Shown here: positions 8,767 through 55,230 of the stretch, one piece after another
How positions within the stretch are numbered: the stretch's first letter is position 1
How the letters are laid out: each line of letters starts with the position of its first letter
DNA from: Candidatus Uhrbacteria bacterium
GTDB taxonomy: Bacteria; Patescibacteriota; Patescibacteriia; GWA2-47-26
NCBI GenBank assembly: GCA_016187515.1
Contig: JACPJN010000006.1
Span: 128,856-192,855, forward strand
Direction of reading: 5' to 3'
Length of the DNA: 64,000 nt
Made by a program: the position numbers and the translations under genes
Notes under the pieces: generated by a model
The model's database searches: none
What the model was told of the DNA's origin: nothing
Seen by the model: the letters and a program-made list of their open reading frames with translations, nothing else

Positions 8767-8775
8767 ACGTTTGAA

Positions 8776-15028: not shown

Positions 15029-15076
15029 ACAACCTGATTTACTTGATTTACCCGTGATTTACCTGTCTCGCTTGAT

Positions 15077-19428: not shown

Positions 19429-19535
19429 GCGTTTTCTCCTTTTTGCGCGGTTTAACGTTTGCGCGGTTTCACGCCCTATATTAATAACATATCCGCCGCG
19501 CTCTGTCAAGAATGTTTTCAAAAAAGCGAGGAATT

Positions 19536-19576
19536 TCTCCCCCTGCCCGAGGGGGAGATAAAGAGGGGGTGGGAGC
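19536..19576. repeat. GC-rich palindromic element (ctccccctgcccgagggggag...gggggtgggag), intergenic copy
   Basis: Read directly from the sequence. Same core as the copies at 24520, 35670 and 62900. Confidence 0.6.
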
Positions 19577-19666
19577 CCAAAATGCCATTAGGAGAACCGT
19601 GTTTTGCGTATGATCCAAACAAACCCGGTTTACCCCGTTAGCAGCAGATCGCGATTCGCGAGCGCG

Positions 19667-19698
19667 GCTTCTAACGGGTAAATGCAGTGCGGCCGCAC
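19667..19698. repeat. 32-bp perfect palindrome GGTAAATGCAGTGCGGCCGCACTGCATTTACC (NotI core); copy 1 of 3
   Basis: Perfect dyad symmetry. T-rich tract follows on the plus strand. Related copies lie at 27236-27268 and 28038-28070. Confidence 0.7.
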
Positions 19699-19879
19699 TG
19701 CATTTACCGTTTGTTATTTTCTGTAAATTTTTGTTTTCCTGAATCACGGCTTCTTAAAAAAAGACCGCACGACCCTAAGAAAGGTGTGCGGGGCCCGCGC
19801 GAGAACGCACGCGCAGGCAAGATCGTCTCCGCCACTTCGAGGCGGCTTTCGCCTCTTCGGGGCGGGTTTGCGGAAAGAG

Positions 19880-22768: not shown

Positions 22769-23406
22769 TAACGCACCTCCGTTGCAAAGGAAGCAGCAAT
22801 GGTCTCTAGCTCTACAACTTTTGGATTGCCAGAGATTGAGTACACGCTGCCATTCGCCTCTGTGATGTATGTTTCGGACACATCATCAATAAGTTCACTG
22901 ATATAGCGCACTCTGGTAAACATCGTCCCACCTATAATTACCTGCGATTGAGATTCGATACCATCGATATATTTGATTTCTTCATTAATACTTCCTGCTC
23001 GCACTACCTCAATCGTGAGTGGGTACGGCGGATCAGAATGTAGCAATGGTGTGAACGGTTCCGGGTTTAACACCACGATGTGGACATTCGCATCACCTAT
23101 CGCGTCGAAAGGAAGCTCTGCATAGTACCACCCCTCCGGATACGCCAACTGCGCAATTCCCCAGGCCGGATTGCGGTACACTTGCCATCCTTCCGGAATC
23201 ACACTGCCGGAATCCGGCGCGCCAGCGTCCGCGCGTTCCTCTTTTACATCTTCAGCTTCCCTCTCGGCTTCTGCTCCAGCATCGGCCGATTCCGCCGCCG
23301 GGGTCTGGGTCAGCACTTTTTCCTTGCAGCCCAGCCCCAAAAGCGCAAACGCGACAAACACGGTCATTAACTTGTCAATGAACCCGCCTCTCCCACCGAC
23401 GTTCAT
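22768..23406 (-). CDS. lipoprotein, paralog pair with 29787..30425
   Basis: MNVGGRGGFIDKLMTVFVAFALLGLGC has a lipobox. The first roughly 110 aa are near-identical to the paralog, then the sequences diverge. It overlaps the downstream M23/Kelch gene by 1 nt (two-gene cassette). The start is chosen at M21 of ORF-track 22768..23466, so the true start is uncertain. Confidence 0.6.
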   Translation of the reverse strand: MNVGGRGGFIDKLMTVFVAFALLGLGCKEKVLTQTPAAESADAGAEAEREAEDVKEERADAGAPDSGSVIPEGWQVYRNPAWGIAQLAYPEGWYYAELPFDAIGDANVHIVVLNPEPFTPLLHSDPPYPLTIEVVRAGSINEEIKYIDGIESQSQVIIGGTMFTRVRYISELIDDVSETYITEANGSVYSISGNPKVVELETIAASFATEVR

Positions 23407-23513
23407 GCCTCCGTCCCGACCGTGGTCGGGACTCGGACTTTTCTCCTCGCTTTGAGTATAGTGCATATATGATAATTTGACAATTAGCTTCGCGATAATT
23501 GGTGATTCGATAA

Positions 23514-23921
23514 TTAGCCGCTTAGCGGCGATGATTTGCGATTGGTATTGATTTGTTTGCGTTGGTAATGCGCCTCAATATAGCGATTAAGTTTGGGCGC
23601 CAATCCCTGTATCATTCCGTTACACTTCTGAAAAAATGCTTCCGCTATTATACCGCGCTCTTTCATAAGCCCCAACCAATGCAGTGTTTCATAAAGAGAA
23701 CCCCGTGCATTATATAAAAATTTTATTTTGTCTAGATAGTGAAACCTCCCATGGGCTTCTGCAATATTCGCGCCTACCGAATCAATCGCGGTAATCCACT
23801 GATCCCCGATAATTTTTCTTGTATGCCATTCAAATGTTTTAAATGTGTTCCAACTTTCGCGCGATAATTCCCGTGCAATATTGTAGACCTCAATTTTATG
23901 CAAATTAATTTCCCCCTGCAT
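23514..23921 (-). CDS. four-helix-bundle protein (23S rRNA IVS / Avd-like family), second copy
   Basis: IAIDSVGANIAEAHGRFHYLDKIKFLYNARGSLYETLHWL matches the conserved core of the family (N..EG..R....D...FL..A.GS..E...). Confidence 0.65.
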   Translation of the reverse strand: MQGEINLHKIEVYNIARELSRESWNTFKTFEWHTRKIIGDQWITAIDSVGANIAEAHGRFHYLDKIKFLYNARGSLYETLHWLGLMKERGIIAEAFFQKCNGMIQGLAPKLNRYIEAHYQRKQINTNRKSSPLSG

Positions 23922-24021: not shown

Positions 24022-25797
24022 TCAATGCCTCGGCAACTCCACTCCTTTGCCGCCTTCGCCCATCTCTTCCGCCGAGAGCGGCGGGGGGCCGGAAAGCGGG
24101 AGTATAAAAATAAATGTTGAGCCCTGGCCGCGGCCGGGCGACTCGGCCCAGATTTTTCCGCCGTGTTTGTCAATAAACATTTTTGCAACGTGCAGACCCA
24201 GCCCGCTGCCCTCAATCGGCTCGCCTTCGCGCCGGCGCATCGTTCCGCTCGCCGCGCGCCTGAATTTTTGGAACAGCACCGCGATATCTTCCGGCTCCAA
24301 ACCGAGTCCAGTATCCTTCACACTCACCTTCACCCACCCTTGCGAATTATCTAATTGTCTAATCATCGAATTATCCAATTCACACGTTACAGTAATCGAT
24401 CCCTTCATCGTATACTTTATCGCATTATCAATAAGATTGACAATCACATGCCGCATTTTTTCCTCATCAAATTTAACCAGCGGAATCCCCTCCAATTTTC
24501 CCCTCTTTTCCAAGGAGGTTTTCCTCCCCTGCCCGAGGGGAGGCGAGGAAGGGTGGGAGGGGGTGGTTCGACCACCCTCAAACGTCAATTTCAACTTTTT
24601 CTGCGCCGCGCGCGGCTGATATTCCTCCACAATATCTTTGACCAACGCGCACAAATCCTGCTCTTTGAAATTATATTTCATCTTGCCCAACTCAATACGC
24701 GAAACATTCAAATACTCACCAATAAGATTTATAAGCCGCGTCGCGCTTTCCGCCATTTTTTTCATGGCATCAATCTGCCGCTGATCTTTAACCTCACCAA
24801 ACGTACCATCAAGCATAGCCGCCAGCCCCAACCGCACCACAGTTAACGGACTGCGCAACTGATGTGAGGCCATAGACAAGAAATCTGTCTTGGCCTGATC
24901 CAACTCCTGGAGCTTCGCATACGCCACCTCCAACTCATTCTTCAACCTCTCCATCTCCTCACGACGATCTACCTCACGAATAACACTTCGTATCAAAAGA
25001 TAACCAAAATAAAGAAACAGTACGAGCACTATGCTTCGGAGGAATGCCTCGAATCTCGTCTGTGAGAAAAATAACTGGAAAAACAGTACAATAAATATGG
25101 CAAATACTAGCACCTCCGTGGCAATGACCTTAATACGCAAAAGTTGATAGCGAAATACTCCTATCGCAACAAAGGTGGCAAACAATGGTACACTGAAGTT
25201 TAAAATAGGATATACATCTATCTCAAAGACCGGAAAAAATGATGGGGTACCACCCGCAAAACCAAGCCCAGCGCCTAAAAGAACGTATAGTATTTGTGTT
25301 CGTTTAGGTTCGACACTCTTCAAAAATGCCCTTACCAACCAATAATGGGCCATCAAAACTGCAACTACAAAGTAAGCAGTAAATGCAGAGTATAAAATGG
25401 TGGGTGGCGAATCATAGTAAAATTGTCCGAATGTGTAACGCACACAACAAATAAGAGCGCCAGTTAAGTTAGTCAATCCAAAAAGGATAGCTAGGGTGTA
25501 ATTTATTAATACAAGAAATCCTCGCTTCTTCTTATCGATAAAAACAAGCACGAAGTGAAAAAGAAAAGCCGGGATCATAATGACCCCAACGTGTGTAAGT
25601 CGCCATAAGAACAACGACTGTGACGGATCTTGTTCACGCGCGATAAAAAATCCCCCGATACCCCATAAGGAAACCACAAATGTAAACAAGGCAAGGAGCC
25701 AACGATCCTTTTCTCGTTGGGCATTGATAGCAATTAAGATGGCTAACGGGATAGAAATAACCGCTATCAAAATGCCATTCACAGCAAAAGCATTCAT
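24022..25797 (-). CDS. membrane sensor histidine kinase (orphan; no response regulator adjacent)
   Basis: Roughly 7 N-terminal TM helices. HisKA H-box SMASHQLRSPLT. HATPase_c motifs DNAIKYT and GSGLGLHVAK. An in-frame GC-rich palindromic insert at 24487-24575 sits between HisKA and the ATPase domain. Confidence 0.85.
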   Translation of the reverse strand: MNAFAVNGILIAVISIPLAILIAINAQREKDRWLLALFTFVVSLWGIGGFFIAREQDPSQSLFLWRLTHVGVIMIPAFLFHFVLVFIDKKKRGFLVLINYTLAILFGLTNLTGALICCVRYTFGQFYYDSPPTILYSAFTAYFVVAVLMAHYWLVRAFLKSVEPKRTQILYVLLGAGLGFAGGTPSFFPVFEIDVYPILNFSVPLFATFVAIGVFRYQLLRIKVIATEVLVFAIFIVLFFQLFFSQTRFEAFLRSIVLVLFLYFGYLLIRSVIREVDRREEMERLKNELEVAYAKLQELDQAKTDFLSMASHQLRSPLTVVRLGLAAMLDGTFGEVKDQRQIDAMKKMAESATRLINLIGEYLNVSRIELGKMKYNFKEQDLCALVKDIVEEYQPRAAQKKLKLTFEGGRTTPSHPSSPPLGQGRKTSLEKRGKLEGIPLVKFDEEKMRHVIVNLIDNAIKYTMKGSITVTCELDNSMIRQLDNSQGWVKVSVKDTGLGLEPEDIAVLFQKFRRAASGTMRRREGEPIEGSGLGLHVAKMFIDKHGGKIWAESPGRGQGSTFIFILPLSGPPPLSAEEMGEGGKGVELPRH

Positions 25798-27007: not shown

Positions 27008-27235
27008 TGTCTCCTCCCCATCGGGATTGTTAAGTTGTTGATGAACCAACTTCCTCCTAACCTCTCCTCCTACCCCATTAAAGCACAAAATGGGGCTTTT
27101 GTCAAGTTTTGCACACGATGAACGCATCGAGGGGCGATGGGACCCCACACCGCCCGCCGGGGCGCCGGATTGACCACGCCAGAAAGATTGCGAAGGAAAC
27201 CATCGCAAAAACCTCCGCCACCCTCAACCAAATAC

Positions 27236-27268
27236 GGTAAATGCAGTGCGGCCGCACTTTGTTTACCA
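27236..27268. repeat. NotI-core palindrome copy 2 (ggtaaatgcagtgcggccgcactttgtttacc), in the divergent promoter region between the SDR gene and the PaaX-like gene
   Basis: Read directly from the sequence. Confidence 0.6.
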
Positions 27269-27967: not shown

Positions 27968-28037
27968 GGGGACTGCTCCGCTGTACTCGCCTATCACACC
28001 AGCGTAAACCCTCAAGATAAACCCTCAAACAAACACG

Positions 28038-28070
28038 GTAAATACAGTGCGGCCGCACGTTATTTACCGT
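28038..28070. repeat. NotI-core palindrome copy 3 (ggtaaatacagtgcggccgcacgttatttacc), between convergent gene ends
   Basis: Read directly from the sequence. Flanked by A-rich and T-rich tracts, consistent with a bidirectional terminator. Confidence 0.6.
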
Positions 28071-28251
28071 TTATTTTTGACGGCAAGTTTTTGTTTTATG
28101 GTTTTATGGAAAGTACTCCAATCCGATTCTTGGTTATCCTGAATAACTCAATAAAAAGAAAAAAGCCCACGTGTGTTCAAGACACGCAGGCCAGAGCGTA
28201 CCGCCGCGAAAAGGCGGCTTCCCGCCTCCTCGTGGCGGGTTTGCAAAAGAG

Positions 28252-29787
28252 CTACGGCGGCGTATACCGTCCGCCGGTGTTGAGCGGTCCATCTTCATCA
28301 CTCCCTCCCCAGACCACCATTGCACTGCCAGTCCAAACCGCGGTGTGCAAGTAACGCGCCGCAGGCGCGCCAACAGTGGAGACCGGACTCCAGGAGTCGG
28401 TTTCCGGATCATACCGGCTGCCAGTGTTGAGTAGGCCATCTTCACCCCATCCATCCCGTCCTCCCCAGACCACCATTGCACTACCTGTCCAAACCGCGGT
28501 GTGCAAGTAACGCGCCGCAGGCGCGCCAACAGTGGAAGTCCGACTCCAGGAGTCGGTTTCCGAATCATACCGGCTGCCAGTGTTGAGACGGCTATCTTGA
28601 CCCGCTCCTCCCCAGACCACCATTGCACTACCGGTCCAAACCGCGGTGTGATAGTCACGCGCCGCAGGCGCGCCAAAGGTGGCAATCGTACACCAAAATT
28701 CGTGGCAATCCGAATCATCTTGATCAATGAATCCATCTACGTCGTTGTCTACGCCATCACAGCAACCACATTCAATGAGTACTCCTGCAACGCAAGCAAT
28801 TGCAGCAGACCCGCATGTTATGGTGAATCCTTCATCCACTCCGCCATCACAGTCGTTGTCCAGCTCGTCGCAGACTTCAACCGGAGCCGAACCGCAGACA
28901 CCGCAGGCATTGAGGAGTCCTTCATCTGTTGCGCCGTCGCAGTCGTTGTCAACCCCATCGCAGGTCTCGGGGCTTGACGGGAAAGGGACAGACGAGCAGG
29001 CGGTGCTCATGAAATCGGCGGTGCAAACATAGACGCCGGTGTTTTGGCAAGCGCCCACTCCTACTGTGCAAGGGGTAAGCAGGCCGGGGAATCCTTCGTC
29101 GGTCTGTCCATCGCAGTCATCGTCGGTGTAGTTGCAGACCTCGTCGGCATCGGGATTAATGACCGAGGCCGGCACACCTTCTGGCGTCTCCCCAGAGTCC
29201 AGGCAATCGCCTTCAGCAACCGTGTAGCCGTCGGAGTCGTTGTCAGCGAACGCGGGGCTCCAGGGCTGGGGAGGGCACGTGGCCCAGAGGGGGTTGGCGC
29301 CGCATCCCCCTGCGTAGTCCGGCGGATCGCCGTAGGGATTTACCCGCACTCCATCCGGATCGCGGACTTCGAAATGAAGGTGGGGGCCACGAGAAAACCC
29401 TGAAGTGTCTGACAGTGCAATCTGCTGACCGGGCGTAACGTCGCTATCCTCCTCCACCCGAATCGAGTCAGGAGCAAGGTGCGCGTAGATCGTAAGGTAG
29501 CCATTGGAATGCCTGATGCGAACATGGTTCCCAAAACCGCCCCGACGTCTAAATCCTGCAGGATGAGAATTATCTACCCTCGTGACGCTTCCTGCCGCGG
29601 CAGCAAACACAGGAGTGCCGCCCGCTGCTCGGTAATCGATCGCATTATGGCAAACGTTTGGGATCGGGTAGTTGGGACAGCAGAAATCACACGTAATAAC
29701 GCGTGTTTCTGCTAATGGCAGATACAGAAACTGTTCTGCTCTTGCCACACTTGCGGTAGCAAGTATTGCCATTATGTGCCTAATCAT
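28252..29787 (-). CDS. secreted M23 peptidase / Cys-rich / Kelch-like repeat protein (short paralog of 19880..22768)
   Basis: Signal peptide and M23 motifs (HNAIDYRAAGGTPVFAAAAG, GNHVRIRH, GPHLHFEV). CDGVDNDCDG-type motifs. Three TAVWTGSAMVVWGG repeats. C-terminus TGGRYTPP. The last roughly 45 coding nt plus about 90 nt downstream are near-identical to the 30597 paralog. Confidence 0.75.
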   Translation of the reverse strand: MIRHIMAILATASVARAEQFLYLPLAETRVITCDFCCPNYPIPNVCHNAIDYRAAGGTPVFAAAAGSVTRVDNSHPAGFRRRGGFGNHVRIRHSNGYLTIYAHLAPDSIRVEEDSDVTPGQQIALSDTSGFSRGPHLHFEVRDPDGVRVNPYGDPPDYAGGCGANPLWATCPPQPWSPAFADNDSDGYTVAEGDCLDSGETPEGVPASVINPDADEVCNYTDDDCDGQTDEGFPGLLTPCTVGVGACQNTGVYVCTADFMSTACSSVPFPSSPETCDGVDNDCDGATDEGLLNACGVCGSAPVEVCDELDNDCDGGVDEGFTITCGSAAIACVAGVLIECGCCDGVDNDVDGFIDQDDSDCHEFWCTIATFGAPAARDYHTAVWTGSAMVVWGGAGQDSRLNTGSRYDSETDSWSRTSTVGAPAARYLHTAVWTGSAMVVWGGRDGWGEDGLLNTGSRYDPETDSWSPVSTVGAPAARYLHTAVWTGSAMVVWGGSDEDGPLNTGGRYTPP

Positions 29788-30425
29788 TATGGCACCTCCG
29801 ATTGGAATGAGGATACGACAGTTTCAAGCGAGACCAATTCAGGGTCGCCAGTTATGGCATACACCCTCCCATTCATCTCCAATAGATACGATTCGAACTC
29901 TCTATCTACGAGCTCCTCGAGATATCGAATCTTTACAAACTGCCGCTCTCTAATTTCAACCGTAGTCTGTGACTCAAGATTCTGCGTAAGCAGAATCTCC
30001 TCTTCCAGCGTTCCACCTTCTCGAACATCAAGAGTGAGAGGGTACACTGGATCCGTATTGGAAAGCAGTGCAATCGGCTCAGAACTAAACACCACCACCA
30101 GAAGATTCGCATCACGAGTTTCTTCTGTCGACAATTCTTGTGAGTGCCACCCCGCCGGATACGCCAACTGCGCAATTCCCCAGGCCGGATTGCGGTACAC
30201 TTGCCATCCTTCCGGAATCACACTGCCGGAATCCGGCGCGCTGGCGTCCGCACGTTCCTCTTTCACATCTTCAGCTTCCTTCTCGGCTTCTGCTCCGGCA
30301 TCGGTCGATTCGTGAGCCGGGGTCTGGGTCAGCACTTTTTCCTTGCAGCCCAGCCCCAAAAGCGCAAACGCGACAAACACGGTCATTAACTTGTCAATGA
30401 ACCCGCCTCTCCCACCGACGTTCAT
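29787..30425 (-). CDS. lipoprotein, paralog of 22768..23406
   Basis: MNVGGRGGFIDKLMTVFVAFALLGLGCKEKVLTQTPA... is identical over the N-terminal region. It overlaps the downstream M23/Kelch gene start by 1 nt. Confidence 0.6.
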   Translation of the reverse strand: MNVGGRGGFIDKLMTVFVAFALLGLGCKEKVLTQTPAHESTDAGAEAEKEAEDVKEERADASAPDSGSVIPEGWQVYRNPAWGIAQLAYPAGWHSQELSTEETRDANLLVVVFSSEPIALLSNTDPVYPLTLDVREGGTLEEEILLTQNLESQTTVEIRERQFVKIRYLEELVDREFESYLLEMNGRVYAITGDPELVSLETVVSSFQSEVP

Positions 30426-30596
30426 GCCTCCGTCCCGACCGTGGTCGGGACTCGGATCAAAGTTAATTGCCTCTCTACGCATTATTCCACACTTTGACAA
30501 AACAAAAAAGGCCTGTGTGTTTTCAAGACACGCAGGCCAGAGCGTACCGCCGCGAAAAGGCGGGAATCGCCTCTTCGTGGCGGGTTTGCAAAAGAG

Positions 30597-33500
30597 CTAC
30601 GGCGGCGTATACCGTCCGCCGGTGTCGAGGTAGTTATCCCCGTCGTATCCACCCCAGACAATCATCTCGGAGCCAGTCCAGACGGCGGTAGGCAGACGAC
30701 GGGCCGTTGGCGCACCTGTCAAGGCCATATCTGCCCACGTATCACTGCTGGGATCATAACGTGCGCCATCATCAAAGTGATTCGCGAAAGCACCTTCACC
30801 GTCAGTCCCGCCCCACACGATCATCTCGGAACCGGTCCACACCGCAGTGTGCAAGTAGCGCGCCGAAGGAGCACCTGAACTTGAAATCCCGAGCCAAAGC
30901 TCTGTGCCAGGGAAATACAGTGCACCATTGGAGAATTCGGTTGTCCCAGAGCGGCCACCCCAGATAATTATACACTGCTGACTGCCGGAAGCAGAATCGC
31001 AGTCATCTGCCACTATCATCGTGTGGTACTCTCGAGCAGAAGGGTCTCCGATAGTTGGCATCGCAGTCCATGTATTGTTCACAGGATCGTAAATGCCGCC
31101 ATCTCCCCTTGGGCCGCTGCAAGACCGGCCTCCCCACACAATCATCGTGGATCCTGTCCACACTGCCGGGTGAGCGCGTCTTAGGGAGGGTGTCCCAGTT
31201 GTCGAAGTCGCTGCCCACGAATTATCGCTTACCCTGTAACGGCCGCCTGTGTTTGTAAGCGAACAACTTCCACTGGTATCTCCGCCCCAAACTATAAGCT
31301 CAGATCCTGTCCATACTCCAGAATGGTTGAGGCGCGCTGAAGGAGCGCCTACGGTACTCGTAGCGCTCCAAGTATTTGCGGAGGGATCATATCTTCCGCC
31401 TGTATTGTACTCTGACGACAAGTGAAATCCACCCCATACGATCAGCTCGATTCCGGTCCAAACCCCAATGTGACTCTGACGGCTTGCTGGTGCACCACTC
31501 GTTGTTGTGGCAAACCAAGCATCAGCTTCAGGGAAATATCGGCCACCTGTTCCAGTTCCAGTGAGGTAAGCTATTTCACCACCCCAAATAACCATGCATT
31601 CCTGAAGTCCGGCAGTTGCTGTGTCACAATCCACACCAGATGTCCACACCGCGGCAGGATTTGTGCGCGGCGATGGAGCGCCTGTTGTTGTCACCGGCAG
31701 CCAGTACCCCACTGCGCAGCAAGCACTTCCGCATCGCTCGTACCCTAGATCGCAGGTAATCACGCATGTGCCGCTAGTGCAACGCACAGTGCCATTTACC
31801 GGTGCAACACATGCTCTTCCGCATGCACCGCAATGATCCAAATTAGAGTTGATATTCACCTCGCAGCTATCTACTGCGCTATCATCGCAATCTCGCAAAC
31901 TGCCTGAACATGCAGTGCAGATGCCAGACAAGCAGTAGGAAGTGAAGTTTGTGCACACAGCGCAGGTACTCCCGCATGCCTCGTTGTTTGCAGAAACCGA
32001 GGTTTCACAGCCATCCTCTGCCACTCTATTGCAGTTGGCATATCCAGCAAGGCAAGTAAATCCGCAGGTTGCCGCGCTGCACGTAGCGGCTGCGTTTGCC
32101 CGCGAAGGACAGGCAGTATCAATAAAGGTATAACCGCATATCCCATCGGCGCAGGTACCTGGGCTGTCGTACGAACGCACTGCCGGGCCTGAAACACATT
32201 CATCCGCAGGCGGATTGTCGCAGACAATCGGCGTACCATTGCAAACCCCGCCGCCACACTCATCTCCATCGGTGCACGCCTCTGCGTCGTCACAAGAATC
32301 AGCATTGTCCGTAAACACGCAGTCCGTTGCCGCGTCGCAAGAGTCGTCGGTGCAGATATTCGTGTCGTCGCACACAATCGGTGTTCCTGCGCATGTTCCG
32401 CCGCCGCACACATCCCCTGCGGTGCACGCATCCACGTCATCACAGGGATCAGTGTTGTCCGTAAACACACAGCCGGTCGCGGGGTTACACGAGTTGTCAG
32501 TGCAGATGTTGCCGTCGTTGCAGGTGATTGCAACTCCTGCGCATGTTCCGCCGCCGCACACATCCCCTGCGGTGCACGCATTTCCGTCATTGCAAACCAC
32601 CGTATTGGGCTCGTTCACGCACCCGGCCGCGCTGTCGCAGGAGTCGTCGGTGCAGGGACTACTGTCGTTGCACGCCGCATCAGATGGCGTAAACACACAG
32701 CCGGACGCGGAATCGCAGGTATCCACGGTGCAGACAACGGAGTCATTGCAGACCACGGCCGTAAACACGCACGCGCCGCTATCGCACGCATCACTGGTGC
32801 AAGCGTCTTCGTCGTTGCAGACCGTGTCCGTGGCCGTGTAGGAACACACGCCGCCGGAACACGTGCCAACCGCCGCAAAAGTACGGCGCGTCAGCCCATC
32901 CGCGCACTCGGCCGAAGGCGGGCTCACGCAGACCATTGGCGTGCCACTGCAGGCGCCGCCAGAACAGATATCTGACACGGTGCACGGATCCGCGTCATCG
33001 CAGGAGGCGGTGTTATTGGCAAACACACAGCCCGTTGCCGCGTCGCACGAGTCGTCGGTGCAGGGACTACTGTCGTTGCATTCCCCGTCTTCCGGCGTAA
33101 ACACGCAACCGGACGCGGGAGCACAGGAATCCGCGGTGCAGGCAACGGAGTCATTGCAGATCACGGCCGTAAACACGCACGCGCCGCTATCGCACGCATC
33201 ACTGGTGCAGGCGTTGCTGTCGTTGCAGACCGTGTCGGTGGCCGTGTAGGAGCACACGCCGCCGGAACACGTGCCGACCGCGGCATAGGTGCGCCGAGTT
33301 ACTACGTCTGCGCATTCGCTAGCCGGCGGCGCTTCACACGCAACCAGCGTCCCATTACAGGTACCATCCGCGCACACATCTGACAGCGTGCACGGATTTC
33401 CGTCGTTGCAGACGACAGTATTGGGATCGTTCACGCACCCGGTCGCGCTGTCGCACGAGTCGTCCGTGCAAGGACTACCGTCCTCGCACGCCGCATTATT

Positions 33501-34745
33501 CGGCGTAAACACACAGCCGGACGCGGAATCGCAGGTATCCACGGTGCAGGCGATCGCGTCAGCGCAGGAGACCGGCGTGTAAACGCACGCGCCGCCCCTG
33601 CACGCGTCAGCTGTACAGGCGTCCGCGTCATTGCAGGAAGTGTCCGTAGACACGTAGGAGCACACGCCACCCGCGCACGCTCCAGAGGCGGCATAGGTGC
33701 GGCGGGTAAGGCCGTCTCCCAAACACTCGGCTGAAGGCGGAGTTTCGCAAACCATTGGCTCTGCCGCACAAACCTCGCCGTCGCAATGATCAGCCACGGT
33801 ACAGGGATTTTCATCATCACAGATCGTGTCCAAGGCGCTGCAAACCTCCCAGGCGCACGCCGCGCAGTTCTGAATTCCGATTGTGCCGCACGCTGGTACG
33901 CACGGCTGAAGCGCTGCGCCTTCGCAGTCCTCGCCCGAATCGCGCACGCCGTCCCCGCAGGAAGGCAAAACGCACGCGCTACGGCAGGCGTTGGGAAGCA
34001 CGTTGGAATTGTCCGCTCCATTATCACACTGCTCGCCGGAGTCCGTAACTTCATCTCCGCAACGGAAAACGGTGCAATCGGTCCGGCAGGCGTCCGGCGC
34101 GGTGTCGGAATTTTCCGCGCCCTCGTCGCACTCCTCGCCGGAATCCGCCACCTCATCACCGCAGGAAGGTTCCCCACAGTTTGTTCTGCACGCATCCGGC
34201 GCGGTGTCAGAGTTTTCCGCGCCTTCATCGCACTGCTCGGCGCTGTCGGAAACTCCATCACCGCAGATCGCGGCACTGCAGTCAACGCGGCAGGCGTCCG
34301 CTTCGGTGTCGGAGTTATCCGCACCATTGTCGCATACCTCTGCCTCATCAACCACGCCATCGCCGCAGTACGCTGCGAGGCAGTCAGAACGGCAAGCATC
34401 AGGCGCGATATCCGAGTTAAACGAACCGTCGTCGCACTCCTCGCCGCTATCGGTAATCGCGTCGCCGCAGAAAGGCCGACGACAATCCGTCCGGCACACG
34501 TCCGGATCATCAGCGTTGGCTGCTCCGTTATCGCACTCCTCGCCCGGATCGCGCCGCCCGTTGCCGCAGGAAGGAACGTAGGCGTCGGGCGAAATGCCCG
34601 CATCCGGCGGGGCCATCCCCATATCCGGCAGGAGTTGAGGCGCGATTGCCATGTCCGGCTCCGGCGTTGCCGCCGGATTGCTTCCGCAGGACAACAAACA
34701 CATCAGACCCGTAAGCGTCAACACGTTTCGCTTGTCAAAGTGCAT
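30597..34745 (-). CDS. giant (1382 aa) Cys-rich surface lipoprotein: Myxococcus-type cysteine-rich repeats + CxxxC tandem repeats + C-terminal Kelch-like propeller
   Basis: Lipobox signal MHFDKRNVLTLTGLMCLLSC. About 7 tandem CGDGxxDxGEECDxG...NSD..PDACRxDC units (Myxococcus cysteine-rich repeat pattern). About 20 further units such as CNDxxxCTxDxC. Eight WTGSEMIVWGG-type repeats. C-terminus GGRYTPP. GC is markedly higher than elsewhere in the window. Confidence 0.75.
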   Translation of the reverse strand: MHFDKRNVLTLTGLMCLLSCGSNPAATPEPDMAIAPQLLPDMGMAPPDAGISPDAYVPSCGNGRRDPGEECDNGAANADDPDVCRTDCRRPFCGDAITDSGEECDDGSFNSDIAPDACRSDCLAAYCGDGVVDEAEVCDNGADNSDTEADACRVDCSAAICGDGVSDSAEQCDEGAENSDTAPDACRTNCGEPSCGDEVADSGEECDEGAENSDTAPDACRTDCTVFRCGDEVTDSGEQCDNGADNSNVLPNACRSACVLPSCGDGVRDSGEDCEGAALQPCVPACGTIGIQNCAACAWEVCSALDTICDDENPCTVADHCDGEVCAAEPMVCETPPSAECLGDGLTRRTYAASGACAGGVCSYVSTDTSCNDADACTADACRGGACVYTPVSCADAIACTVDTCDSASGCVFTPNNAACEDGSPCTDDSCDSATGCVNDPNTVVCNDGNPCTLSDVCADGTCNGTLVACEAPPASECADVVTRRTYAAVGTCSGGVCSYTATDTVCNDSNACTSDACDSGACVFTAVICNDSVACTADSCAPASGCVFTPEDGECNDSSPCTDDSCDAATGCVFANNTASCDDADPCTVSDICSGGACSGTPMVCVSPPSAECADGLTRRTFAAVGTCSGGVCSYTATDTVCNDEDACTSDACDSGACVFTAVVCNDSVVCTVDTCDSASGCVFTPSDAACNDSSPCTDDSCDSAAGCVNEPNTVVCNDGNACTAGDVCGGGTCAGVAITCNDGNICTDNSCNPATGCVFTDNTDPCDDVDACTAGDVCGGGTCAGTPIVCDDTNICTDDSCDAATDCVFTDNADSCDDAEACTDGDECGGGVCNGTPIVCDNPPADECVSGPAVRSYDSPGTCADGICGYTFIDTACPSRANAAATCSAATCGFTCLAGYANCNRVAEDGCETSVSANNEACGSTCAVCTNFTSYCLSGICTACSGSLRDCDDSAVDSCEVNINSNLDHCGACGRACVAPVNGTVRCTSGTCVITCDLGYERCGSACCAVGYWLPVTTTGAPSPRTNPAAVWTSGVDCDTATAGLQECMVIWGGEIAYLTGTGTGGRYFPEADAWFATTTSGAPASRQSHIGVWTGIELIVWGGFHLSSEYNTGGRYDPSANTWSATSTVGAPSARLNHSGVWTGSELIVWGGDTSGSCSLTNTGGRYRVSDNSWAATSTTGTPSLRRAHPAVWTGSTMIVWGGRSCSGPRGDGGIYDPVNNTWTAMPTIGDPSAREYHTMIVADDCDSASGSQQCIIIWGGRSGTTEFSNGALYFPGTELWLGISSSGAPSARYLHTAVWTGSEMIVWGGTDGEGAFANHFDDGARYDPSSDTWADMALTGAPTARRLPTAVWTGSEMIVWGGYDGDNYLDTGGRYTPP

Positions 34746-34760: not shown

Positions 34761-35942
34761 CTAGAGCATACTCCACGCGCGAAAAGTGTCAAGCATTTTC
34801 TGCGCTGATTTTTGCCAAGAAAATTCCTGCGCGCGGACGTAGCCGGCTTCAATGTAATGCCGCCGCACCTCATTGTCTTCCAAAAGCACCCGCATCCCCG
34901 CGGCAATTTCATCCGTTTTCCACGGACTGACCAGCACCGCGCCGTTGCCGCAAATCTCGGGCACGGAGGAGGCGGAGGAGGCCACGACCGGCACGCCCGC
35001 GGCCATGGCTTCGAGCGGCGGAAAACCAAATCCTTCATAAAATGAAGGATAAACAAAAAGACGCGCTCCGGCGTACAGGTCTATTTTTTGTTCCTCGGTT
35101 GGATTCTCGATTAAACGGATGCGCTCGCGCAATTTGCTTTGGGCAATACGTTTTTTTAAGCGCTTTGTATAAGGAGTGGCCAAACCGGCGATCCACAATT
35201 GCTCCCGCGGTTTCAGTGCCTCGTATGCGGCAATCAACCCTTCAATATTTTTCCGCGGCTCCAGCGCGCCGAAATATAATATGAAGTCATCAGTCATCGG
35301 TTCACAGTTCACGGTTTTAGTTTTAATGTGAACTGTTGACTGTGAACTATTGACTCCACCTCCGGGATAGATCACGCTGATCTTCTTCGGCGGTATTCCA
35401 TACGTCTCCATCAAATCGTCCTTGGTATGCCTCGACACCGCGATAATATGATCGGCGCGTTTCAAAAGCGCGCGCGGACCGATGGCGCGATGCCAAAGCC
35501 GGCTTTTCAGCGAAAAATGTTCAGGGAAATGTATAAACGATAGGTCGTGAATAGTTAGAATGAGCTTGGTGCGCGATGGAAGCGCGATGAAATTCAGGTT
35601 GGGCATGAAAAAAATATCTAGACCCCCTCTAACTCCCCCTCGGAGAGGGGGAGAAACGATACGATTTCCTCCCCTGCCCGAGGGGAGGTTAGGAGGGGTG
35701 GGAGCACCAAACACCTTCATCCCTACATTCAACGCCTTATTCGGCCATCTTGTGTGATACACGCGCGCATTTGGATATTCGGAAAACTCCGGCACGGATA
35801 ATTTTCCTGCCGCGTTGTACCACACCACATACTCATTGACGCGATCCAACTCAAAAAGCGCGCGCAGAAGATGATAAGTATACTGCCCCACACCGCTTCT
35901 GGGCGTACTCTGCAGCGCGCGGCCGTCAATTGCTATTCTCAT
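34761..35942 (-). CDS. glycosyltransferase family 4 (GT-B, retaining)
   Basis: EGFGFPPLEAMAAGVPVVAS is the GT4 E-x7-E region. An in-frame GC-rich palindromic element at 35622-35706 encodes PPNLPSGRGGNRIVSPPLRGGVRGGLD. Confidence 0.85.
   Translation of the reverse strand: MRIAIDGRALQSTPRSGVGQYTYHLLRALFELDRVNEYVVWYNAAGKLSVPEFSEYPNARVYHTRWPNKALNVGMKVFGAPTPPNLPSGRGGNRIVSPPLRGGVRGGLDIFFMPNLNFIALPSRTKLILTIHDLSFIHFPEHFSLKSRLWHRAIGPRALLKRADHIIAVSRHTKDDLMETYGIPPKKISVIYPGGGVNSSQSTVHIKTKTVNCEPMTDDFILYFGALEPRKNIEGLIAAYEALKPREQLWIAGLATPYTKRLKKRIAQSKLRERIRLIENPTEEQKIDLYAGARLFVYPSFYEGFGFPPLEAMAAGVPVVASSASSVPEICGNGAVLVSPWKTDEIAAGMRVLLEDNEVRRHYIEAGYVRAQEFSWQKSAQKMLDTFRAWSML
35622..35706. repeat. GC-rich composite palindromic element, reference copy (gaccccctctaactccccctcggagagggggag...cctcccctgcccgaggggaggttaggaggggtgggag)
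   Basis: Two internal dyads: CCCCCTC..GAGGGGG and CCTCCCC-TGCCCGA-GGGGAGG. About 90 percent identical to 62860-62938 and to the reverse complement of 11795-11890. Confidence 0.75.
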
Positions 35943-35956: not shown

Positions 35957-37078
35957 TTATAAGAGCTTCGCTCTTGTATGTCCGCCTTGAAACTCCCCGT
36001 AGGCGCGCTCCACGTATCCTTGCATCCGCGTTTTAAATTCCGGCAAATCAAACTGCCGCGCCCAGGCGCGAATTTCCTCCGGCTGATATTCTTCCGGCTT
36101 AAAATTAGTAACCGCGTCAAGGAGCGTCTCCCATTTCTGTTCATAAAAAAACTTACCGGTTTTACCCTCCCGCACGGTCTCCAGCGCCCCGCCGCGCCCA
36201 TAGGCCACCACTGGCCGGCCCGACGCCATGGCTTCGAGCGGCAGCAATCCGAGGTCCTCGAGTTGCGGATGTAAAAACGCCACGCACTCGGAGAGCAGTT
36301 GGGACTTTTCTTTATCGGAAACGTGTCCTAAGAATTTGATATTTTTCTTGGCCATTTTTCTCAAGGGCTGCTCATACGGCCCGCGTCCAAAAATTAAAAG
36401 CGGCCAGCCCAGGCGATTAAATGCTTCAATCGTCAAATCAAAACGCTTATAAGCCACCAGCCGCCCGCCGGCCAGAAAATAATTTCCGACCTTGCGGCTG
36501 ACATAAAATTGCGAACAATCCACCGGCGGATAGATTACCTCGGCCTCGCGATCATAGTATTTTTTAATCCGCTTGGCCACGGTCTGCGAATTAGCCAGAA
36601 AGCGATCCACGCGCAAGGCGCTCGTGCGATCCCACATGCGCAGAGAAGTGAGTAGAAAAGGAAGGGCAAATTTAATGGCGCGGTTCGTGCGCAAGTCCTT
36701 AATATAACTATGGGTCTCGGTCCAAAGATACCGGGTGGGCGTGTGACAGTAGGAAATATGCAAGGCGTCCGGACGAGTAACGACGCCCTTGGCAAAAGCC
36801 GAAGAAGAGGAAAGTACCGCGTCAAATTCTCCCAGATCATGGTGCTCGGTAGCGGCCGGCATGAGCGGAAGCGTCCACCGATAGTAACGCAGCACCCCGG
36901 GCAGTCCTTGGAGCACCGAGGTATGCATATCCCGCTCTTTAAATTCTCTGCCCCAGCGCTTTTTATCGTAAAAAAGCACAAAGATCGGAGCGTTCGGCCA
37001 AATTTGCGAAAACGCCCGCAGTACCCGTTCGGCTCCCCCGTCTTGGATCAAATAATCGTGCACTAAAGCGAGTTTCAT
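35957..37078 (-). CDS. glycosyltransferase family 4
   Basis: MKLALVHDYLIQDGGAERV ... LEDLGLLPLEAMASGRPVVAYGRGGALETV. Confidence 0.85.
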   Translation of the reverse strand: MKLALVHDYLIQDGGAERVLRAFSQIWPNAPIFVLFYDKKRWGREFKERDMHTSVLQGLPGVLRYYRWTLPLMPAATEHHDLGEFDAVLSSSSAFAKGVVTRPDALHISYCHTPTRYLWTETHSYIKDLRTNRAIKFALPFLLTSLRMWDRTSALRVDRFLANSQTVAKRIKKYYDREAEVIYPPVDCSQFYVSRKVGNYFLAGGRLVAYKRFDLTIEAFNRLGWPLLIFGRGPYEQPLRKMAKKNIKFLGHVSDKEKSQLLSECVAFLHPQLEDLGLLPLEAMASGRPVVAYGRGGALETVREGKTGKFFYEQKWETLLDAVTNFKPEEYQPEEIRAWARQFDLPEFKTRMQGYVERAYGEFQGGHTRAKLL

Positions 37079-37090: not shown

Positions 37091-37205
37091 TCCCCCCTCT
37101 TAAGTTAAGAGGGGGTAGGGGGAGTTATGCCTGTCCGTCTTAGACGAAAGCATACATCATGTTTCATAACCCCTCCCCGCCTCCCCTTATCTTAAGGGGA
37201 GGAGA
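37091..37205. repeat. pair of palindromes (ccccctcttaagttaagaggggg ... ccccttatcttaagggga) in the divergent spacer
   Basis: Read directly from the sequence. The first palindrome is identical to the one inside the carboxypeptidase gene at 12781-12803. Confidence 0.6.
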
Positions 37206-42177: not shown

Positions 42178-42963
42178 GTACCCTGAAAACCGGATGATCG
42201 CCCCCACACCTATCAGACACAGTGACGCACAGCGTCAAAACAGGACCTAGGTATACAGGTGTTGATGAAAAGCATCGTTTGCCAGTTGAACAAGACAGAC
42301 TTGCTTACTAGTGTCTGAAAGGTGTGGGGGAGGAAAGTCCGAACACCCCAACCAGTGCTTCGCACTGGAAATTCCAAGCACCAAGCACCAAATACCAAAA
42401 AAATCCCAAACTAAAAATTCCAAATCACAAACTTGGAATTTGGGATTTGGAGATTGAATATTGTCTGGAATTTGGAAATTGTGATTTGGGATTTCCAGCG
42501 CGGAGCGCTGGCGGAAGTAGGTACCAGCTAACGGCTGGGCATCCTGCTCGGCATAACACATAAAGCCGGCTGACGGATTAGTGCCACAGAGACAATACTA
42601 CCCCCACACCTATCAGACACTTTGGCGCGAAGCGCCACAAGAGCCTAACCATACGGAAGTTCTTGCTGAATACAACTGCCAGTCGAATAAGACAGGATGT
42701 GCATGTACAAGGTGCCTGAAAGGTGTGGGGGGAAAGGTGAAAAGTGAGGTGGTGTTTATCGCTTAATTCCACTCTAAAGGTGGCGTAAACGAGGAAGCTA
42801 CACCTCTTGCTCCCGAGTAATCGGGATGCGTGGAAAACCCTACCTGGTGCAAGTCGTATAACCGACGCATGAGGCCCCGCGTAAGCGGGGTCCCAGAGAG
42901 ATGATCATCCAGTCCCGCGGACGCGGGACGGACAGAATTCGGCTTACAGGTTTTCTTGGTACG
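42178..42963 (+). ncRNA. rnpB: RNase P RNA (bacterial type A core) with greatly expanded P3, P5.1-region and P12 helices (about 786 nt)
   Basis: CR-I GGAGGAAAGTCCGAACACC is at 42329. A P5.1-like UUCG hairpin ccagtgcttcgcactgg follows. Then CCAGCTAACGGCTGGG (a P8-like GNRA-type hairpin). Then AGTGCCACAGAGACAATAC (cf. E. coli AGUGCAACAGAGAGCAAAC). Then a CR-II-like GGTGAAAAGTGAGGTGG. CR-V ACAGAATTCGGCTTA is at 42932. P1/P2 pairing joins 5' GTACC/GAAAACC with 3' GGTTTTC/GGTAC. The expansions are 42201-42330 (P3 position), 42365-42500 and 42601-42731 (P12 position). Confidence 0.65.
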
Positions 42964-53134: not shown

Positions 53135-53144
53135 TCGCGGAATT

Positions 53145-54695
53145 ATGAATTATGAATTAAGAATTATGAATATACGGAGATCGATTCTCCGTGGCCACGG
53201 AGAATCGATCTCCCGATTTTTCCTACTCCTTACTCCTTATTCCTTATTCCTAATTCTCACGCTTGCTCTACCAGCGCAAGCCCAATCCCTGCCCCAACTT
53301 AAAACCTTTTGCTTTACCCAAGACGAGTGCGTTTCCCCGCCCTACAGCGGCGAGGCCAAAGAAGCGCCGGAATGTCGTGACCAAGATCCCCGCTATGTCC
53401 AGGCCGGCTATCTTTACAACTGTTACGCCAAACAGCAGCCCATCCGCCTGGAGGTCGGGATTGGCCCGTATAAAGTCGCGGGCATTGAGGATTATATCCG
53501 CCGACTCTACATTTATCTCATTGGCATCTCCGGAATCGTGGTGGGCGTGATGTACACTTGGGCCGGCTTAAAATGGCTAACCTCGGGCGGAGCTCCGGAC
53601 AGAATCACGGACGCGAAAAAGAAAATCGGAAACGCCACGGTCGGGCTCGTGCTGCTGCTCTCCTCCTACCTGATTCTCCAAACCGTTAATCCCGCGCTCG
53701 TGCGTCTGCGTTTGCCGGCCCTGAAGATGCCCCGCCAGGTTCTCTTGGGGGACGACTTGTGTGTAAATCGCCCGGAATATCCCTGCGGCGGATTAAAATT
53801 GCGGCCATCGCTAAGCCAGGATGGGCTGGGTCAATGGCAAGTCGCTCTGCTCGATCCCCTGCTCCGGGACAGGAAATATCAATGTGATGACCCCAGTAAT
53901 GCGGACTTGGCGCGTAACCCGCCTTGCCAAGACGGAGTCGGCTCCGGCGCTTGCGTACCCCGCTTCTGTCCATTTCCGGGATGCTATACCCTGCTTGAGG
54001 ACCGGATTACTGAAGATGCTCAAGATGTTATCGAGGGCATCGACGAGTATCAAGAAGCTCGCGATGCTGGACTGAATGTTCCCACTGGAACGAGCGATGC
54101 TGAGGTTTTGGAGCTGATCACGACTTTCCGCGAACAAGCCAGCCAAAATCAACGGATGTGCGTTAAACCGGAACAGTGCGGAGGGTGCGCGGCCAATACT
54201 CCCTGGGCGGTCTGTGTCTCGTCTGCTTGTCCCTGCATACTGGATGTAAAAGAAATTGGCGGGGAAGATCAGATCGTTTGCGCCGGCCGGCGAGGTGAAG
54301 GTCAGCCCTGCGAAAGGCATGAGCAATGCCAAGGCCAAGGCCAAGGCGGCCGAGCCGGACGCTGCAACTTTGGCCGCATACCTAATGAATGCACTCCGGA
54401 AGGAGGCGAGCCACCCGGACAGCCCTGCGATGTTGATGGCGATTGCGCAAGCGGGCTATGCAATGAGAATGCCGCGACAGATGTATGCGTTGCTCCGCAA
54501 TCGCTCCGCATTGGAGAGGATTGTTCTTCCAGCGAAGAGTGTGTTACCGGGGTTTGCGGATATGAAGGCGTGATTAGCACTCTTAATCCCGCCTCTGACC
54601 CAGTTTGTATGGCGGCAGGACAATGTAACGGTCTAACCCGAGTTGGCTGTCCTTGTGAAACTTCCATCAACTGCAATACGAATACCGGGGATTAA
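53145..54695 (+). CDS. secreted/membrane protein with VirB2/TrbC-like two-helix hydrophobic hairpin and C-terminal Cys-rich domain (tentative)
   Basis: Signal peptide FFLLLTPYSLFLILTLALPAQA. The hydrophobic helices IYLIGISGIVVGVMYTWAGLKWLTSGG and IGNATVGLVLLLSSYLILQTV are separated by a short polar loop. The long C-terminal region has more than 30 Cys. Start taken at 53145 within ORF-track 53043..54695. Confidence 0.4.
   Translation: MNYELRIMNIRRSILRGHGESISRFFLLLTPYSLFLILTLALPAQAQSLPQLKTFCFTQDECVSPPYSGEAKEAPECRDQDPRYVQAGYLYNCYAKQQPIRLEVGIGPYKVAGIEDYIRRLYIYLIGISGIVVGVMYTWAGLKWLTSGGAPDRITDAKKKIGNATVGLVLLLSSYLILQTVNPALVRLRLPALKMPRQVLLGDDLCVNRPEYPCGGLKLRPSLSQDGLGQWQVALLDPLLRDRKYQCDDPSNADLARNPPCQDGVGSGACVPRFCPFPGCYTLLEDRITEDAQDVIEGIDEYQEARDAGLNVPTGTSDAEVLELITTFREQASQNQRMCVKPEQCGGCAANTPWAVCVSSACPCILDVKEIGGEDQIVCAGRRGEGQPCERHEQCQGQGQGGRAGRCNFGRIPNECTPEGGEPPGQPCDVDGDCASGLCNENAATDVCVAPQSLRIGEDCSSSEECVTGVCGYEGVISTLNPASDPVCMAAGQCNGLTRVGCPCETSINCNTNTGD
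53177..53224 (+). terminator. 38-bp perfect palindrome + T-tract (ggagatcgattctccgtggccacggagaatcgatctcc cgattttt), a terminator-like structure lying inside the 5' coding region of the next gene
   Basis: Read directly from the sequence. The only in-frame ATGs for the downstream secreted protein (53145, 53166) lie before it. Confidence 0.5.
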
Positions 54696-55207: not shown

Positions 55208-55230
55208 AGACGGTGAACTGATGTCTCAAT

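Follow-up and report, generated by a model that had tools for sequence, protein, structure and literature searches.

How does an 85-nt palindromic segment come to lie in frame inside a glycosyltransferase gene, and why do close copies of it recur in unrelated genes of the same DNA? The question is raised by the GT4 glycosyltransferase gene at positions 34761-35942 (minus strand) of a stretch of 64 kb from a metagenome-assembled genome (MAG) of Candidatus Uhrbacteria; this whole stretch is what we call the window, and all window counts refer to these 64 kb. Judging by its sequence, the focal segment (35621-35707) is probably a copy of an interspersed DNA repeat, non-coding by origin, which has the intrastrand-triplex-motif architecture of the repeats known as BoxC, PIT or TM and which is tolerated in frame in genes. 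Copies of this repeat have spread across the genome and, in bacteria of the Candidate Phyla Radiation (CPR), they are kept inside genes.

Read from 5' to 3', one unit of the repeat is made of a pyrimidine arm (CCTCCCC), a first loop (TGCCCGA), a purine arm (GGGGAGG), a second loop, a second purine arm (GGAGGGG) and, usually, a TGGGAG tail, where loop 2 is either TTA, TAA, CGA or similar, or a variable hairpin. The second purine arm is the mirror image of the first one and not its direct repeat. This mirror third arm accompanies 18 of the 18 exact hairpins of the window, on one side only, with 0-2 mismatches and at an offset of mostly 3 nt. The order of the parts on one strand fits the class II purine motif (antiparallel G*G-C / A*A-T register), and a candidate unit, predicted to be triplex-forming, reads CCTCCCCTGCCCGAGGGGAGGTTAGGAGGGG. 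This architecture was overlooked in the earlier note on this DNA, which recorded the inverted arms only. The 85-nt long form, represented by the focal copy, consists of two units in inverted orientation with a spacer of ~11 nt, a configuration found at 35621-35707, 62857-62941, 11796-11890 and 763-845, and likewise in many metagenome copies. It can fold into a pair of local hairpins or into a single long, imperfect one (DNA-fold z = -2.1 to -3.8), and the uvrA copy at 57082-57140 adopts a three-way fold (-23.1 kcal/mol, z = -5.1); these calculations consider Watson-Crick pairing, the triplex assignment resting on the architecture of the sequence. A G-quadruplex reading of the G-rich tail was dropped, as G3 tracts are too scarce and every sub-family is compatible with a mirror-repeat/triplex reading.

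Fifteen loci of this element are present in the window. Ten of them lie in frame within open reading frames (ORFs) and one lies at the 3' end of uvrA. The remaining four are intergenic, and three of these are located 15-20 nt 5' of start codons or in leaders. The repeat family that the earlier note had described, with about 14 loci and nine copies inside ORFs, is thereby borne out, the tenth intragenic copy being counted since rluD holds two. Its in-frame location in conserved genes stands as well, and all the gene identities given there are supported by Pfam (DprA, ParB, metallophosphoesterase, S11 D,D-carboxypeptidase, histidine kinase, GT4, UvrA, and a synthase of the RluA family). The 21-mer core CCTCCCCTGCCCGAGGGGAGG has four exact occurrences in the window, versus none in 100 shuffles. 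A scan for exact hairpins, with a 5' arm of at least 7 nt made of C/T only, a loop of 3-10 nt and the G/A complement as the 3' arm, returned 18 matches, versus 0-2 in each of 30 Markov shuffles, and a three-arm finder recovered ~19 full units, versus none in 20 shuffles. By the same hairpin scan, no hairpins of the opposite polarity, with the purine arm first, were found in the window, and the single units are distributed 7 vs 3 over the two genomic strands, a polarity that is not significant. The three 85-nt copies (35621-35707, 62857-62941 and, in reverse complement, 11796-11890) have pairwise identities of 89.8% over 88 nt, 89.4% over 85 nt and 91.4% over 81 nt, in agreement with the ~90% reported before. 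With 11 of the 15 loci in ORFs against a coding fraction of 0.85 (p = 0.16), the ORFs of the window are not depleted of copies. The occurrence of the element in both orientations, in several reading frames and also between genes confirms that it is a repeat at the DNA level, not a peptide motif. The loci are the following:

35621-35707 (inverted pair, units 35622-35652 minus and 35668-35698 plus): focal copy, 85-nt long form, in frame in the GT4 glycosyltransferase gene, encoding the peptide APTPPNLPSGRGGNRIVSPPLRGGVRGG, aa 79-108.
62857-62941: long form, in frame in the rluD-like gene 62172-63182 (minus), aa 81-109, in the linker between the S4 and catalytic domains.
11796-11890 (opposite genomic orientation): long form with the tail GGAGGGGTGGGAG duplicated, in frame near the C-terminus of the metallophosphoesterase gene 10910-11989 (plus), read in a different frame as the peptide PPLLTSPRAGEEKLFLPLVKGELEG.
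763-845 (units 764-794 minus and 811-841 plus): diverged inverted pair, in frame in dprA, interrupting the DNA_processg_A domain match (Pfam).
8582-8726 (plus): degraded long form in parB 7771-8838 (minus), in frame within the N-terminal tail that precedes the ParB_N domain; its loop 1 contains an inserted hairpin, and there are 3-4 repeats of the 13-nt G-rich tail.
9696-9728 (plus): single unit CTCCCCCTTA-GGA-TAAGGGGGAG-TCA-GAAGGGG, intergenic, 17 nt 5' of the parA start codon (9679).
12770-12828 (minus): single unit and a neighbouring small hairpin, in frame in the D,D-carboxypeptidase gene 12003-12899 (minus), aa 24-45.
19534-19581 (plus): single unit TCTCCCCCT-GCCCG-AGGGGGAGA-TAA-AGAGGGGGTGGGAG, intergenic.
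24519-24565 (plus): single unit with the exact 21-mer core, in frame in the histidine kinase gene 24022-25797 (minus), encoding the peptide TTPSHPSSPPLGQGRK.
37093-37124 (plus): single unit CCCCCTCTTAA-G-TTAAGAGGGGG-TA-GGGGGAG, intergenic, 15 nt 5' of the start of the glycosyltransferase gene 35957-37078 (minus).
37163-37205 (minus): single unit in the 5' leader of a nucleotidyltransferase/GT2 gene, whose mechanical ORF runs from 37159 but whose Pfam domain begins only at aa 52 (MKGVILAGG).
55966-56003 (plus): single unit CCCCTCCC-TTGGT-GGGAGGGG-CGA-GGGGAGGGGG, in frame in uvrA 55231-58155 (plus).
57082-57140: unit with the arms of E. coli TM_ECO, CCCTCTCCC-CAA-GGGAGAGGG ... GGGTGAGGG, in frame in uvrA, with the hairpin GGCCgcaGGCC as loop 2 and a CCCTCACCC arm upstream.
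58137-58192 (plus): unit at the 3' end of uvrA, whose pyrimidine arm and loop make up the final four codons (SPLR) and the TAA stop.
62408-62441 (minus): single unit CCCTCCC-TCGAT-GGGAGGGG-ATGAA-GGGGAGGG, in frame in a variable-length loop of rluD, encoding IPLPRWEGMKGR, aa 246-257.

Weak BLAST matches at 10353-10373, 27032-27069, 3129-3147 and 14706-14718 were excluded as copies, since they have no hairpin. The 13-nt G-rich tail GGAGGGGTGGGAG occurs in two- to fourfold tandem duplication at 8641-8726 and 11796-11832 of the window, and also at loci L050, L053, L062 and L075, which suggests a slippage-driven expansion following insertion.

An architecture of this type is already known from Escherichia coli. 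The repeats named BoxC, later PIT and later TM_ECO are class II purine-motif intrastrand triplex repeats (Holder et al. 2015, PMC4666352, citing Bachellier and Hoyne/Maher), with the consensus CCCTCNCCC-N3-6-GGGNGAGGG-N3-GGGNGAGGG and a loop 2 that is TTA in type A or CCG in type B. They have been reported from proteobacterial genomes, not from CPR, their units are often arranged in inverted pairs, and they show no connection with transposons but an association with local instability of the sequence (PMC4666352). With the Uhrbacteria element they share a pyrimidine arm, a loop of 3-7 nt, a purine arm, a 3-nt loop (TTA in type A) and a mirror purine arm, as well as a G/C-rich composition, multiple copies, inverted pairs, loops less conserved than stems, local gain and loss, and the lack of a known association with a transposase. 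The insert at 57096-57135 in the uvrA of the window even has the arms of the TM_ECO consensus exactly (CCCTCTCCC / GGGAGAGGG / GGGTGAGGG); it is the only copy in the window with such arms, its loop 2 being of 13 nt, and a full TM_ECO consensus copy lies downstream of uvrA in L059. The focal copy, in contrast, departs from the consensus, with the arms CCTCCCC(T)/(A)GGGGAGG/GGAGGGG and a loop 1 of 5-7 nt, and the dominant Uhrbacteria arms are of 7-8 nt (CCTCCCC/GGGGAGG/GGAGGGG) whereas that of TM_ECO is the 9-nt CCCTCNCCC. Additional to the Uhrbacteria element are the conserved TGGGAG tail and a loop 2 that is sometimes a variable hairpin. On these grounds, the Uhrbacteria repeats would be of the same kind as BoxC/PIT/TM, in a different sequence sub-family, and the earlier proposal of a "distinct" new element falls, since the BoxC/PIT/TM_ECO architecture matches.

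Where the two differ most plainly is in their location. E. coli MG1655 has 23 TM_ECO copies, "always located intergenically" (PMC4666352), that is, 0 of 23 in genes, versus 11 of the 15 loci in ORFs in the Uhrbacteria window, and copies lie in ORFs across CPR genomes too. A BoxC-like query matched all 5,426 complete E. coli genomes at a median of 27 places per genome.

Other repeat systems offer partial likenesses. The Rickettsia palindromic elements (RPE; Ogata et al. 2000, as summarised in PMC10969869) have in common with the Uhrbacteria element that they are short palindromic repeats, in several families, located in frame in unrelated conserved genes as fold-compatible peptide segments, with a known mobilising enzyme in neither case. 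However, RPE are of ~150 bp, are known only from Rickettsia and have a conserved peptide per family in a preferred frame, whereas the Uhrbacteria element has 35-95 bp, homopurine/homopyrimidine arms, occurrences in all six frames and a presence in many CPR lineages. On this comparison, made by description only, the analogy with RPE drawn in the earlier note seems apt as to effect. The REP elements (extragenic repeats of palindromic sequence) and REPINs are likewise short GC-rich hairpins, often in inverted pairs and of high copy number, for which a target-site duplication is not expected; yet REPs are extragenic, unlike the Uhrbacteria copies, co-occur with a gene for a REP-associated tyrosine transposase (RAYT, TnpA-REP), and have neither purine/pyrimidine-segregated arms nor a mirror third arm. 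As for miniature inverted-repeat transposable elements, the ends of the element are inverted-repeat-like (GACCCCCTC... / ...GGGGTGGGAGC). At gathering thresholds, no Rfam family was found on any element of the window, and relaxed thresholds gave only generic hairpin noise from miRNA models and sub-threshold hits to whalefall-1 (RF01762). The consensus of the latter, with a C/U-rich arm, a loop, a G/A-rich arm, a variable hairpin and a GgGuGAGGA tail, resembles the form of the element with a long loop 2, but it scores below its threshold of 37 bits (25.1 bits at the Muribaculaceae locus L012 and 11.7 bits at the focal copy), and the aligned hairpins match non-corresponding parts of the element.

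The sequence of the arms offers a simple account of how such a repeat can be tolerated in genes. Because the arms are pure C/T or pure G/A, the triplets TAA, TAG and TGA are impossible in them in any of the six frames, and in the three long copies stops are found only within the loops, three or four of the six frames being open. If the inserted length is divisible by three, the insertion therefore just adds a peptide rich in Pro, Gly, Ser, Arg, Leu and Glu. In every intragenic copy the host frame is open on both sides, as in a GyrB with 648 aa upstream and 85 aa downstream of the element.

The positions of the inserts within their host proteins were compared with Pfam matches, with structures and with orthologues, the filled/empty comparisons being between genes 54-82% identical. 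Compared with the solved UvrA of G. stearothermophilus (2R6F), the UvrA of the window has two extra segments, each one a clean gap in the alignment: 16 aa (55966-56003) after the UvrA_inter match (Pfam, aa 133-241), and 14 aa (57082-57140) between the N-terminal half and the second ATPase module. The 14-aa insert is missing from the three of three syntenic Uhrbacteria loci (L057, L059 and L060), the site of the 16-aa insert is a hot spot whose occupant differs from genome to genome, and the copy at the 3' terminus of uvrA exists only in the window, the 3' ends in L057, L059 and L060 having none. In RluD, the long form lies between the S4 and catalytic domains, where an AlphaFold2 model (24 sequences, mean predicted local distance difference test score, pLDDT, of 76.5) has a pLDDT <50 at aa 83-106. 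This site is empty in ~18 of 23 relatives (54-71% identity) and is occupied elsewhere by the long form likewise (P0002), by a different hairpin sub-family (P0003) or, at the identical junction, by the unrelated repeat-derived peptides PEERSDEGS and SLRQAQGIL (P0014 and P0025), while a second RluD loop holds PLPQGER-type inserts in other relatives. The GT4 site is empty in 12 of 15 orthologues, and two have other variants in the same loop. By Pfam, the histidine kinase copy is located between HisKA and HATPase_c, that of the phosphoesterase is C-terminal to the metallophosphatase domain, and those of DprA and GT4 are within the match regions of DprA and of the GT4 N-terminal domain; the D,D-carboxypeptidase copy separates the N-terminal hydrophobic segment from the S11 domain.

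These alignments identify the permissive loops of rluD, GT4 and uvrA as hot spots, in which sub-families of the element and unrelated repeats come and go between lineages. The comparison of orthologues for presence or absence, which the earlier note had put forward, thus yields empty sites in RluD, GT4 and UvrA. The location of inserts in linkers and loops is supported by the gaps against 2R6F and by the segment of RluD with pLDDT <50, and the further idea that they remodel protein surfaces receives from these low-confidence loops of one model and gaps against one solved structure an indirect, not a direct, support. As a side observation, the loops are also filled in related genomes by other repeat families, of the PEERSDEGS type, the SLRQAQGIL type and the AT-rich type ESRTNSRISNSEIRKFG (P0014, P0025 and the uvrA of L059), and at ~300-450 of the window a palindromic repeat, CHPERSEGS...EISPPPRRCRNDN, lies in the extension of the ORF upstream of the likely dprA start, so that in-frame repeat cassettes in these genomes extend beyond the triplex-motif family.

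Beyond the window, further copies exist in other genomes, and the failure to find any, which the earlier note would have held against a mobile element, did not occur. Exact matches to the 21-mer are present at 56 loci of a species-representative genome collection and at 45 metagenome loci, mostly labelled Patescibacteria; taxonomic labels are as given in the records, and retrieval with an exact 21- to 37-mer biases the sequence conservation of these loci upward. The genome loci include Uhr-, Magasanik-, Kerfeld-, Moran-, Berkel-, Doudna-, Andersen-, Nomura- and Saccharibacteria, and further ones come from small MAGs recorded as Gammaproteobacteria, from Prevotellaceae/Muribaculaceae and from Nitrospina. 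One Streptomyces match has no tail and is probably due to chance. The tail, which lies outside the query, follows the core in almost all genome loci. In 20 loci, loop 2 is a hairpin that begins with TG and is highly variable in sequence, ~14 of these 20 folding significantly better than shuffles. About 33 of the 56 genome loci are inside ORFs that reach 200 aa or more, where both orientations and all six frames are represented; loci without a spanning long ORF are located between genes and not in split genes. Forty-eight host ORFs have matches to 95 Pfam families, among them GyrB (3), class I aminoacyl-tRNA synthetases (4), UvrD (2), LigA (2), MnmA (2) and SMC (2), as well as class II aminoacyl-tRNA synthetases. 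The identical 27-aa peptide is also borne by a pyruvate kinase. The metagenome loci comprise two subtypes of the long form. A scan of viral contigs for the 21-mer gave 0 matches, which leaves a phage vector unsupported.

Two observations accompany this distribution. As an insert peptide stretch of RluD, GT4 or pyruvate kinase, TPPNLPSGRGGK may serve as an example; a profile search with the 35-column insert peptide against 1.84 billion representative proteins gave six matches (one pyruvate kinase, one 105-aa protein, and the rest translations of repeat arrays), the query being too short to estimate prevalence. The Prevotellaceae/Muribaculaceae copies from rumen and gut (L012, at 2359-2420, L023, L026 and L045) look intergenic, have a second C/T-G/A hairpin alongside, and their loop 2 always has the long hairpin form.

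Taken as a mechanism, our reading would run as follows. The repeat would spread by copy-and-paste, and two inverted units would give rise to the 85-nt long form, foldable as a cruciform or a long hairpin. Inserted in multiples of three and with stop-free arms, it would add its Pro/Gly/Ser/Arg/Leu/Glu-rich peptide to the host protein, with which it would be translated. Selection would filter for multiple-of-three lengths and permissive sites and, as the alignments and one model suggest, may retain only those copies located in inter-domain linkers, surface loops and protein termini.

A number of points weigh against this picture. Translation of the inserts is read from intact frames only, and even though the single strand of TM_ECO forms a triplex in vitro, none has been detected in vivo in E. 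coli (PMC4666352). No transposase, HUH or RAYT domains were found by Pfam in the ~50 ORFs of the window, as the earlier note had remarked in stating that no gene for an autonomous enzyme is apparent, and no insertion sequence was found there either. Neither a target-site duplication nor a clean insertion boundary is definable, the closest filled/empty pair of genes having ~82% protein identity. The flanks of the three long copies have nothing in common and no visible duplication, and the left flank of the rluD site (xIVxC) faintly resembles the target strand (xEVLHEE), with a DNA identity at chance level. In a rough neighbour-joining tree, the RluD proteins of the window and of L057 are not sisters: that of the window joins an empty-site orthologue in 143 of 200 bootstraps, and a small clade uniting it with P0002 appears in only 3 of 200; the P0003 RluD is 81-82% identical to two empty-site proteins. 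On the alignments of rluD described below, the rluD copy is not accounted for by a simple ancient insertion with subsequent neutral decay, and a cis-acting function of the element is conceivable.

The rluD copy is indeed the one for which conservation could be measured, on one orthologous pair; other pairs were sought by comparing the host ORFs of the other loci with the window, and only rluD was common. Between the window and L057, the 28 codons of the element are 94% identical in nucleotides and 96% at third positions, versus 67% and 45% in the rest of the gene (302 aligned codons), and no other 28-codon window of rluD exceeds 71% third-position identity. Of the five differences, three are in loop 2, one in the third arm and one at the boundary; none lies in the Watson-Crick stems, in either of the two first loops or in the 11-nt spacer. 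Both genes have in common locus-specific extra codons on the left flank. This near-identity indicates either sequence constraint, imposed by mobilisation or by DNA structure, or conversion from other copies, or else repeated acquisition at a hot spot combined with precise losses. Since the copy is 94% identical where the synonymous sites of the rest of the gene are saturated, 90% identity is no proof of recent mobility, and the conclusion that the earlier note drew from it is unsafe. The same note had supposed that orthologues carrying the same peptide with non-palindromic codon usage would argue against a mobile element; the sole orthologue sharing the peptide has palindromic DNA too.

These figures lend themselves to a different explanation, which partly overlaps with ours and which we consider unlikely on balance. 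According to it, the elements are maintained as cis-acting nucleic-acid structures (hairpin, cruciform or transient triplex), which would bind a conserved host protein, pause replication or transcription, or slow ribosomes at domain boundaries, the coding effect being secondary. Apart from the excess of third-position identity in rluD with its unchanged stems, first loops and spacer, this explanation can draw on the long loop 2, a sequence-variable hairpin with conserved pairing in ~14 of 20 loci that looks like compensatory change, on the joint presence of the 21-mer, the T-G start of the loop 2 hairpin and the GGAGGGGTGGGAG tail in records labelled Patescibacteria and Bacteroidota, and on the location of several inserts exactly between domains. 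However, most orthologues have no insert at every examined site, unrelated repeat families fill the same loops, and both the reading frame and the orientation to the host gene are variable; the cross-genome conservation is biased by the exact 21- to 37-mer retrieval, the unbiased comparison being a single orthologous pair. For BoxC in E. coli, moreover, neither promoter or terminator activity nor triplex activity in vivo has been found (PMC4666352). A more specific proposal, of a similarly low probability in our view, is a sequence-constrained DNA-structure module with a dedicated trans-acting partner, present CPR-wide and in some Bacteroidota, which would either mobilise or re-install the element, preferentially in permissive loops, or use it in cis. 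If true, such a partner would explain both the 94% identity amid saturated synonymous sites and the cross-phylum recurrence of the 21-mer, the loop 2 hairpin and the tail.

Far less probable is that the peptides are lineage-specific low-complexity linkers selected as protein, or products of local slippage, in which palindromy is incidental. It is true that the inserts are Pro/Gly-rich and located in linkers, and that the G-rich tail expands by tandem duplication in parB and in the phosphoesterase. Yet the same DNA, in different frames and orientations, gives the unrelated peptides LPSGRGG, TSPRAGEE, PPLGQGR, SSPARGEV, PPLPEGR and LPCPRGG, intergenic copies exist, the three 85-nt copies in unrelated genes have loops and spacer in common, and synonymous positions are conserved. 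The data on frame and orientation effectively refute this explanation.

CPR bacteria are known to have intervening sequences in rRNA genes. That the elements are excised from mRNA in a comparable manner, as the three homologues of the "23S rRNA-intervening sequence protein" in the window might suggest, or that they are artefacts of metagenome assembly, is nevertheless very improbable, for the host frame is open through every intragenic copy, which excision would not need, the copies not spanned by long ORFs lie between genes instead of in split genes, and the rluD insert is seen in independent NCBI and JGI assemblies (L056, L057 and L058).

Some other features of the window deserve a description. 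The three genes of PF05635, the family of the "23S rRNA-intervening sequence protein" (bAvd-like four-helix bundle), are at 14609-15028 (minus), 23514-23921 (minus) and 54842-55207 (plus). The last one, upstream of uvrA, is flanked by 37-nt inverted repeats (54805-54841 / 55193-55229), in the manner of a small mobile cassette; a PF05635 gene stands at the same place in the syntenic locus L057. A gene for a PDDEXK_3 nuclease lies at 1599-2069. Coding sequence is also entered by a second repeat family, unrelated to the first: a 9-nt tandem repeat (GTAAATCAA / TTGATTTAC and variants), whose arrays at 12904-12978, 13923-14023, 14562-14662 and 15032-15090 occupy the boundaries of four small genes in a row. 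This 9-nt repeat is in frame in rluD at 62267-62315, where it reads SKSSKSSETGKSS; the sequence SKSSKSSE(I)GKSS is common to several RluD orthologues, and the AlphaFold2 pLDDT is <50 there (aa 294-303). Three copies of an intergenic palindrome family ACGGTAAATGCAGTGCGGCCGCACTGCATTTACCGT, with a NotI-like centre GCGGCCGC and 79-91% complementarity, are found at 19672-19710, 27221-27267 and 28022-28083, and a near-perfect palindrome of 56+56 nt, made of short repeats of the GAATTATGAATTA type, occupies 53139-53250, between a DsbA-like gene and an ORF resembling a type IV secretion system pilin. Three large paralogous proteins that look secreted are encoded at 19880-22768, 28252-29787 and 30597-34745, featuring an M23 peptidase, MopE-like Cys-rich repeats and a Kelch propeller, and in one of them Dictyostelium CTDC repeats. 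All three have extensive internal DNA periodicity, and a 300-nt segment beside two of them is duplicated (23124-23423 vs 30143-30442, 96% identity). Finally, the RNase P RNA (bacterial class A) at 42446-42962 scores 106.9 bits against a threshold of 100 and measures 517 nt versus the 367 positions of the model, which implies large insertions in this RNA.

BoxC/PIT/triplex-motif repeats have been known since the 1990s and have been treated as strictly intergenic. Their class is therefore not new, nor is the RPE phenomenon; what is new is that triplex-motif repeats reside in conserved genes. The searchable literature yielded no account of the BoxC/PIT/TM class inside conserved genes, of its breadth in CPR or of an intragenic conservation at the nucleotide level, and searches on CPR/Patescibacteria combined with palindromic, in-frame or MITE terms returned nothing relevant. 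Together with RPE, the element would constitute a second, phylogenetically remote case of selfish repeats shaping protein loops, for which arms that are stop-free in all six frames provide a simple sequence rule of tolerance. Because the synonymous sites of the host gene act as a built-in neutral clock, the question of selection on such repeats becomes directly testable, and in the single case measured, that of rluD, the element is far more conserved than its surroundings. For the CPR bacteria themselves, these inserts inflate and distort protein alignments, and they can seed spurious hypothetical ORFs.

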